A stretch of 3,164 nucleotides of DNA from Escherichia phage phiX174, in the sequence record Z35638.1; one strand, given 5' to 3'. A program made the translations under genes and the position numbers. Shown here one piece after another: positions 2,144 through 3,019 of this stretch (the stretch's first letter is position 1; each line of letters begins with the position of its first letter). The notes under the pieces are model-generated. The model was not told the origin of the DNA and searched no databases. It was given only the letters and a program-made list of their open reading frames with translations.

Positions 2144-2173
2144 TTTACACTTTATGCTTCCGGCTCGTATGTT
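2144..2173 (+). promoter_or_regulatory. lac promoter: -35 TTTACA (2144-2149), 18-bp spacer, -10 TATGTT (2168-2173)
   Basis: Hexamers and spacing read directly; context identical to the pUC lac promoter as recalled. Confidence 0.85.
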
Positions 2174-2215
2174 GTGTGGAATTGTGAGCGGATAACAATT
2201 TCACACAGGAAACAG
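2162..2215 (+). repeat. Direct repeat copy 1 (lac promoter -10/lacO/SD segment), 54 bp
   Basis: ggctcgtatGTtgtgtggaattgtgagcggataacaatttcacacaggaaacag; 52 of 54 positions match copy 2, located 121 bp downstream. Confidence 0.85.
2180..2200. promoter_or_regulatory. lac operator O1, first copy (aattgtgagcggataacaatt)
   Basis: Exact 21-bp lacO1 sequence seen directly. Confidence 0.9.
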
Positions 2216-2217
2216 CT

Positions 2218-2241
2218 ATGACCATGATTACGCCAAGCTGA
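2218..2241 (+). other. Truncated lacZ' leader: ATG ACC ATG ATT ACG CCA AGC TGA (MTMITPS then stop), ended by a stop at the junction scar
   Basis: Direct translation; the TGA at 2239-2241 spans the altered HindIII site (aagctG) and the first bases of the EcoRI site. Confidence 0.6.
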
Positions 2242-2250
2242 ATTCAGCTT
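2235..2250. other. Cloning scar: filled-in HindIII site with inserted EcoRI hexamer (aagct-gaattc-agctt); EcoRI at 2240-2245, with a second EcoRI at 2764-2769 at the far end of the insert
   Basis: Seen directly: AAGCT + GAATTC + AGCTT is what a Klenow-filled HindIII end joined to GAATTC produces. The pUC polylinker between HindIII and EcoRI is absent. Confidence 0.55.
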
Positions 2251-2266
2251 ACTCCCCATCCCCCTG

Positions 2267-2294
2267 TTGACAATTAATCATCGGCTCGTATAAT
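2267..2294 (+). promoter_or_regulatory. tac hybrid promoter: -35 TTGACA (2267-2272), 16-bp spacer, -10 TATAAT (2289-2294); SD AGGA at 2328-2331; BamHI GGATCC at 2336-2341
   Basis: Consensus hexamers with 16-bp spacer read directly; the surrounding actccccatccccctgttgacaattaatcatcggctcgtataatg matches the commercial tac promoter cassette as recalled. Confidence 0.9.
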
Positions 2295-2336
2295 GTGTGG
2301 AATTGTGAGCGGATAACAATTTCACACAGGAAACAG
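2283..2336 (+). repeat. Direct repeat copy 2 (tac promoter -10/lacO/SD segment), 54 bp
   Basis: ggctcgtatAAtgtgtggaattgtgagcggataacaatttcacacaggaaacag; differs from copy 1 only at the two -10 bases. Confidence 0.85.
2301..2321. promoter_or_regulatory. lac operator O1, second copy, within the tac promoter transcript start region
   Basis: Exact aattgtgagcggataacaatt seen directly. Confidence 0.9.

Positions 2337-2448: not shown

Positions 2449-3019
<571 letters not shown>

Follow-up and report, generated by a model that had tools for sequence, protein, structure and literature searches.

A 55-bp direct repeat between the lac and tac promoters of a pUC-type plasmid carrying phiX174 lysis gene E, very probably a by-product of vector construction

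The window, that is the whole stretch of 3164 bp of DNA which was analysed, is a complete circular, laboratory-made plasmid of the pUC type which has been opened at an arbitrary point. Over approximately 85% of its length it shows 99-100% identity with pUC-derived records. When the last 120 and the first 120 bases were joined, they gave a contiguous match of 100% in pUC-derived records, and the point of opening is consequently regarded as arbitrary. The backbone carries a class A beta-lactamase gene and a ColE1-type antisense RNA I; a survey of the ORFs of the whole plasmid showed that rop is absent from the pUC-type backbone and that no ORF in the 3164 bp is big enough for lacI. A search of 72,556 plasmid records matched the backbone only, none of them being identical to the insert-bearing plasmid, and no paper naming the plasmid was found. 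Its provenance would therefore be that suggested by its anatomy, and the features on which this is based are listed below.

201-1061: class A beta-lactamase ORF
1272-1376: ColE1-type antisense RNA I (RNAI)
2088-2108, + strand: lac auxiliary operator O3 (GGCAGTGAGCGCAACGCAATT) of the pUC backbone, exact pattern match
2111-2126, + strand: CAP (CRP) site of the lac promoter (TGTGAGTTAGCTCACT), exact pattern match
2144-2173, + strand: wild-type lac promoter, with -35 TTTACA (2144), an 18-nt spacer and -10 TATGTT (2168), from the promoter scan and pattern matches
2161-2215, + strand: repeat copy 1, comprising part of the spacer, the -10, O1 and the ribosome-binding site (lac approximately -19 to +36), from the repeat finder and direct comparison
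2180-2200, + strand: lacO1 operator copy 1, exact 21-bp match to AATTGTGAGCGGATAACAATT
2218-2241, + strand: lacZ' stub of seven codons (MTMITPS) ending at a TGA from the cloning scar, by translation
2240-2245: EcoRI site in the scar which separates the tac cassette from the pUC HindIII site, the latter apparently destroyed, from the restriction map and the sequence
2246-2341, + strand: standard HindIII-BamHI tac promoter cassette (AGCTTACTCCCC...AGGAAACAGGATCC), matching the cassette of pCmGFP
2267-2294, + strand: tac promoter, with -35 TTGACA (2267-2272), a 16-nt spacer and -10 TATAAT (2289-2294), from the promoter scan
2282-2336, + strand: repeat copy 2, comprising the -10, O1 and ribosome-binding site which tac has from lacUV5, from the repeat finder and direct comparison
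2301-2321, + strand: lacO1 operator copy 2, exact 21-bp match
2341-2763, + strand: phiX174 bases 460-882 (truncated D, the whole of E and the first 12 codons of J), 95% identity
2449-2724, + strand: phiX174 lysis gene E, 91 amino acids, 91/91 identical to annotated E; Pfam Microvir_lysis, E-value 1.8e-22
2729-3019, + strand: first 12 codons of J fused in frame to pUC lacZ-alpha via EcoRI (2764-2769), from the ORF list and the phiX174 alignment

The upstream promoter region (2100-2239) is 99% identical to pUC-derived records, and the CAP site, TTTACA, 18-bp spacer, TATGTT, O1, O3 and start of lacZ' of the pUC lac control region were all present in their native arrangement. The sequence at 2111-2126 is taken to be the CAP site from the established layout of the lac control region. 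The distance of 92 bp between the centres of O3 and of the first O1 matches that of the native lac operon. The ribosome-binding sequence of this copy, AGGAAACAG, starts at 2207, and the lacZ' reading frame which follows it runs into the scar AAGCT-GAATTC-AGCTT, read as a destroyed (filled) HindIII site plus an EcoRI linker.

Based on the promoter scan, the hexamers of the downstream promoter agree with the consensus at 12 of 12 positions and are spaced by 16 bp, as required of a tac promoter. They are followed by O1, the lac leader and a ribosome-binding sequence, with AGGAAACAG at 2328-2336 and the BamHI site at 2336-2341, which completes the tac arrangement. The -35 hexamer of tac (2267-2272) lies outside the repeat, inside the 66-bp segment between its copies. 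No start codon is found at a useful distance from the tac ribosome-binding sequence; the first ATG (2365) opens an ORF of only five codons, MISIF, at 2365-2382. Gene E, starting at 2449, is probably translated from its own phage ribosome-binding site, GAGG, at approximately 2435.

The payload had been named as E in the first-pass annotation, and its protein proved to be 100% identical to the phiX174 lysis protein E. Relative to phiX174 the insert has 21 substitutions, all within 2475-2637 and clustered in new six-base restriction sites, by which unique sites for nine enzymes (NheI, HindIII, BclI, SalI, EagI, SacI, XhoI, PstI and BstEII) are created. In the overlapping D frame 14 residues are changed and the first 23 codons are missing. 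The location of the 21 differences in restriction sites, with E unchanged and D altered at 14 residues, clearly points to deliberate design, and the insert carries lysis gene E in a cassette-mutagenesis version. A natural origin was considered and rejected, every substitution creating a restriction site, being silent in E and damaging the overlapping D frame. The ATG of the J'-lacZ-alpha fusion overlaps the D stop codon (TAATG), and with this fusion alpha-complementation could be used to monitor transcription that passes through the E cassette.

The repeat finder and direct comparison revealed that 2161-2215 and 2282-2336 are direct repeats, identical at 53 of 55 positions (96%). The only mismatches are at 2171/2292 (G/A) and 2172/2293 (T/A), so that the -10 hexamers read TATGTT and TATAAT, and they leave two exact blocks, one of 10 bp (2161-2170) and the other of 43 bp (2173-2215). 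The same repeat had been reported at 2162-2215 and 2283-2336 as 54 bp long with 52 matches, which is one base too short, and the accompanying observation that the copies differ just at the -10 bases, GT versus AA, agrees with the direct comparison. The figure of 121 bp, given as the length flanked by the repeats, is in fact the period from start to start; the intervening segment is 66 bp (2216-2281). The assignment of the copies to lac and tac promoter, operator and Shine-Dalgarno sequences is borne out by the promoter scan, the pattern matches and the cassette comparison. Chance similarity can be dismissed, the expected number of pairs of such quality in 3164 bases being approximately 5e-23 and the longest exact direct repeat being 43 bases, compared with a mean of 11 and a maximum of 14 in 200 shuffles. 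Among the other repeats, the direct ones designated D2 and D3 have 72-73% identity, and the operators show inverted matches to 134-150; all of these are short and imperfect and were judged to be due to chance.

The tac promoter consists of the trp -35 region joined to the lacUV5 promoter, operator and leader. Since tac was built from lacUV5, lac and tac elements share approximately 55 bp by descent. The repeat extends from the lac HpaII site (CGG, approximately -19) to the AluI site (AG, approximately +36), which were reportedly the ends of the fragments from which tac was first built; GT versus AA in the -10 box corresponds to the UV5 mutation. The repeat is thus, with high confidence, a by-product of construction which arose when a tac cassette was cloned behind the pUC lac promoter in the same orientation. 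Features of this kind are a known and ordinary outcome of the building of vectors, and the repeat is neither designed nor evolved.

It is scarcely credible that the duplication is an artefact of a map compiled in silico, or of misassembly, and absent from the physical plasmid. The backbone is identical to the textbook pUC sequence and no record of the whole plasmid was found, so the sequence could have been compiled. The junctions, however, make restriction sense throughout (filled HindIII plus EcoRI linker, HindIII-BamHI tac, BamHI-phiX and the in-frame EcoRI fusion), the copies differ at the expected -10 bases, and an independently assembled plasmid (NZ_CP135179.1) has the same kind of tandem. 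Deliberate design, in which the pair of O1 operators was set up and O3 kept for DNA looping by tetrameric LacI around tac and hence tighter repression of a lethal gene, is very unlikely. A stretch of 234 bp does hold two perfect O1 copies and O3, all in one orientation, looping at 57-155 bp strongly boosts repression (PMC1762422), and a lethal payload would benefit from tight control; but all of the elements are off-the-shelf fragments joined at restriction sites, and their spacing is set by the lacZ' stub and linker with nothing to suggest tuning. A favourable helical phase at 121 bp cannot be demonstrated, the estimates running from 10.4 to 11.05 turns. The plasmid carries no lacI, and at so high a copy number the repressor would be titrated, with no advantage to looping.

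As a by-product of construction, the arrangement would place E and the downstream J'-lacZ-alpha fusion under tandem LacI-controlled promoters, Plac followed by Ptac. Each promoter has its own O1 and, from known lac biology, the downstream O1 would repress Ptac and also act as a roadblock to transcripts from Plac. Repression would rest wholly on LacI of the host, and a repressor-overproducing host would be needed because the plasmid has no lacI, two O1 plus O3 in each copy and a high-copy replicon.

Two LacI sites 121 bp apart had been pointed out previously, and these correspond to the O1 copies at 2180-2200 and 2301-2321, with 121 bp from centre to centre. With O3 (2088-2108), which had been missed, the LacI sites in the region number three. 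Maxima of repression at 92.5 and 115.5 bp were reportedly described by Muller, Oehler and Muller-Hill in 1996, which would put 121 bp approximately half a turn off. Repression in vivo is strongly raised by LacI loops which join operators at distances of approximately 57-155 bp (PMC1762422), and both the distance from O3 to the first O1 (92 bp) and that between the O1 copies (121 bp) fall within this range. With the helical repeats fitted in vivo, 10.95-11.6 bp per turn (PMC1762422), 121 bp is equivalent to 11.05 turns at 10.95, 11.0 turns at 11.0 and 10.4 turns at 11.6 bp per turn, that is, anything from in phase to half a turn out. The accidental 121-bp O1-O1 pair together with O3 may loop around the whole tac promoter and give unusually tight repression or roadblocking, which could explain how a high-copy plasmid without a repressor gene keeps a lethal gene; this is considered distinctly improbable.

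A simulated deletion between the copies takes 121 bp from the plasmid of 3164 bp and leaves 3043 bp. Stub and scar (lacZ' and cloning scar), whose removal had been foreseen in the first-pass annotation, were both lost in the simulated products, as was the EcoRI site at 2240-2245. A crossover within the 43-bp block yields the wild-type lac promoter and one within the 10-bp block yields lacUV5, and both products keep the lac -35 TTTACA, the CAP site, the operator, the leader and an intact E. It had been proposed that the product would be of lac or tac type according to the crossover point. The lac product and the dependence on the crossover were reproduced; a tac-type product is impossible because TTGACA (2267-2272) sits in the 66-bp segment which is always lost, and the alternative is lacUV5.

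In structure the repeat resembles a deletion hotspot, being direct and having an exact block of 43 bp against a threshold of 16 bp (PMC8938948). The copies are also close together, with 66 bp between them, on a multicopy replicon of the pUC type (RNAI, no rop ORF). The rate of deletion was estimated with a formula whose form is said to be that of the EFM calculator. Using constants from PMC8938948, the formula, which was calibrated on other plasmids, gave a predicted rate of approximately 3.4e-5 for the exact block of 43 bp, the spacer being 78 bp. With all 55 bp taken as a perfect match the predicted rate is approximately 7e-5, and for the 10-bp block it is approximately 7e-10, below the validity range of the formula.

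Plasmid deletions at repeated lac operators, and likewise at repeated terminators, have been documented and are described as recA-independent for repeats below 200 bp (PMC2991278). The earlier description of the repeat as a substrate for RecA-dependent and slipped-strand deletion is sound as a statement of generic instability, but with such short and close homology the contribution of RecA is probably minor (PMC2991278). A 121-bp deletion which does not require RecA is plausible. It would occur through replication slippage or single-strand annealing, mainly independently of RecA, and in the resulting plasmid of 3043 bp a single lac (rarely lacUV5) promoter would still drive E. Digestion with EcoRI is predicted to give fragments of 524 and 2640 bp from the parent and a 3043-bp linear molecule from the deletion form. 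PCR across the repeat can itself give a product shorter by 121 bp as a result of template switching.

A rearranged subpopulation connected with the toxicity of the payload had been suggested as well. The risk of instability is accepted, but the link with toxicity was overstated, as the products would still transcribe an intact E at high copy. Relief of burden or toxicity is not expected from the simulated products, which keep promoter, operator and intact E. The deletion would probably lower the expression of E only and so be a weak escape route, by which the cell is not truly freed of the toxin; should leaky expression of E be costly, the deletion may have a mild advantage. That the repeat is an important route of escape from E toxicity, with 121-bp-deleted cells being selected and taking over cultures, is therefore unlikely. 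Repeat-mediated deletions which abolish a costly function do take over in 20-50 generations (PMC2991278), the estimated rate of approximately 3e-5 is far above point-mutation rates, and the commonest product would have the weaker, CAP-dependent wild-type lac promoter instead of Plac plus Ptac, which should reduce leaky E. Both products, however, retain a working promoter, the operator and intact E on a pUC replicon, and the documented takeovers had lost the -35 region and with it expression (PMC2991278). Here the lac -35 is retained, so that induced lysis should persist. Moreover, a strain which has been sequenced carries the same tandem architecture intact. True escape would be expected to come from loss of function of E or from mutations of the host, slyD and mraY being the known routes.

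The repeat matters in practice only, to users of plasmids which have Ptac behind the pUC lac promoter, and no biological question depends on it. For these users E is under two promoters, and two O1 in each plasmid copy titrate the LacI of the host. They may also meet with a variant which lacks 121 bp and has one promoter, lac or lacUV5; in it the level of expression would be changed but not E itself.

When compared with known systems, the upstream part of the region is like the pUC lac/lacZ-alpha region in having O3, the CAP site, TTTACA, the 18-nt spacer, TATGTT, O1, the ribosome-binding site and ATGACCATGATTACGCCAAGCT. It differs in that the polylinker is replaced and lacZ' is cut to seven codons by the TGA of the scar, lacZ-alpha being resumed only past the insert, where it is fused to the first 12 codons of J. 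The downstream part has the TTGACA, 16-nt spacer, TATAAT, O1, AGGAAACAG and BamHI site of the tac cassette (pDR540/pKK223-3-type HindIII-BamHI fragment). The cassette of pCmGFP (NC_011521.1), an unrelated vector, matches 2246-2341 base for base except at one operator base. Apart from adjoining an upstream lac promoter, which creates the repeat, the cassette shows no difference of substance. The exceptional base in the pCmGFP cassette (NC_011521.1, 301-395) is a single G-to-T change in the operator (GTGATCGGATAAC), which might weaken LacI binding there.

Known repeat-mediated deletions (BioBrick R0011 lacO, T9002 terminators and the RMD class of the EFM calculator) likewise involve short, close direct repeats on a high-copy plasmid; the documented cases abolish expression and are strongly selected, whereas here only a swap of the tandem for a single lac or lacUV5 promoter is predicted.

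Among the 72,556 plasmid records, a true lac-to-tac tandem was identified in one other, NZ_CP135179.1, an engineered plasmid of 6.1 kb from Vibrio cyclitrophicus ZF270. The tandem, at 440-700 of the record, is intact in this finished assembly, which indicates that the architecture can be maintained, low-frequency variants being outside the scope of such an assembly. The annotation of this plasmid includes one gene named "Abi family protein" and another named "hypothetical protein", the latter starting MVSELIKENMHMKLYMEG; we suspect that these labels represent misannotated vector and reporter sequence. As in the present plasmid, a pUC-type lac promoter and lacZ' stub are followed by Ptac-lacO in the same orientation, and the repeats of the two plasmids agree both in the base at which they start (CGGCTCG) and in the GT/AA difference. 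The repeat of NZ_CP135179.1 differs in being 62 nt long at a spacing of 139 bp, with an SP6 promoter and a polylinker in the spacer, and in place of a lysis gene the payload is the one starting MVSELIKENMHMKLYMEG, which we take to be a red fluorescent protein.
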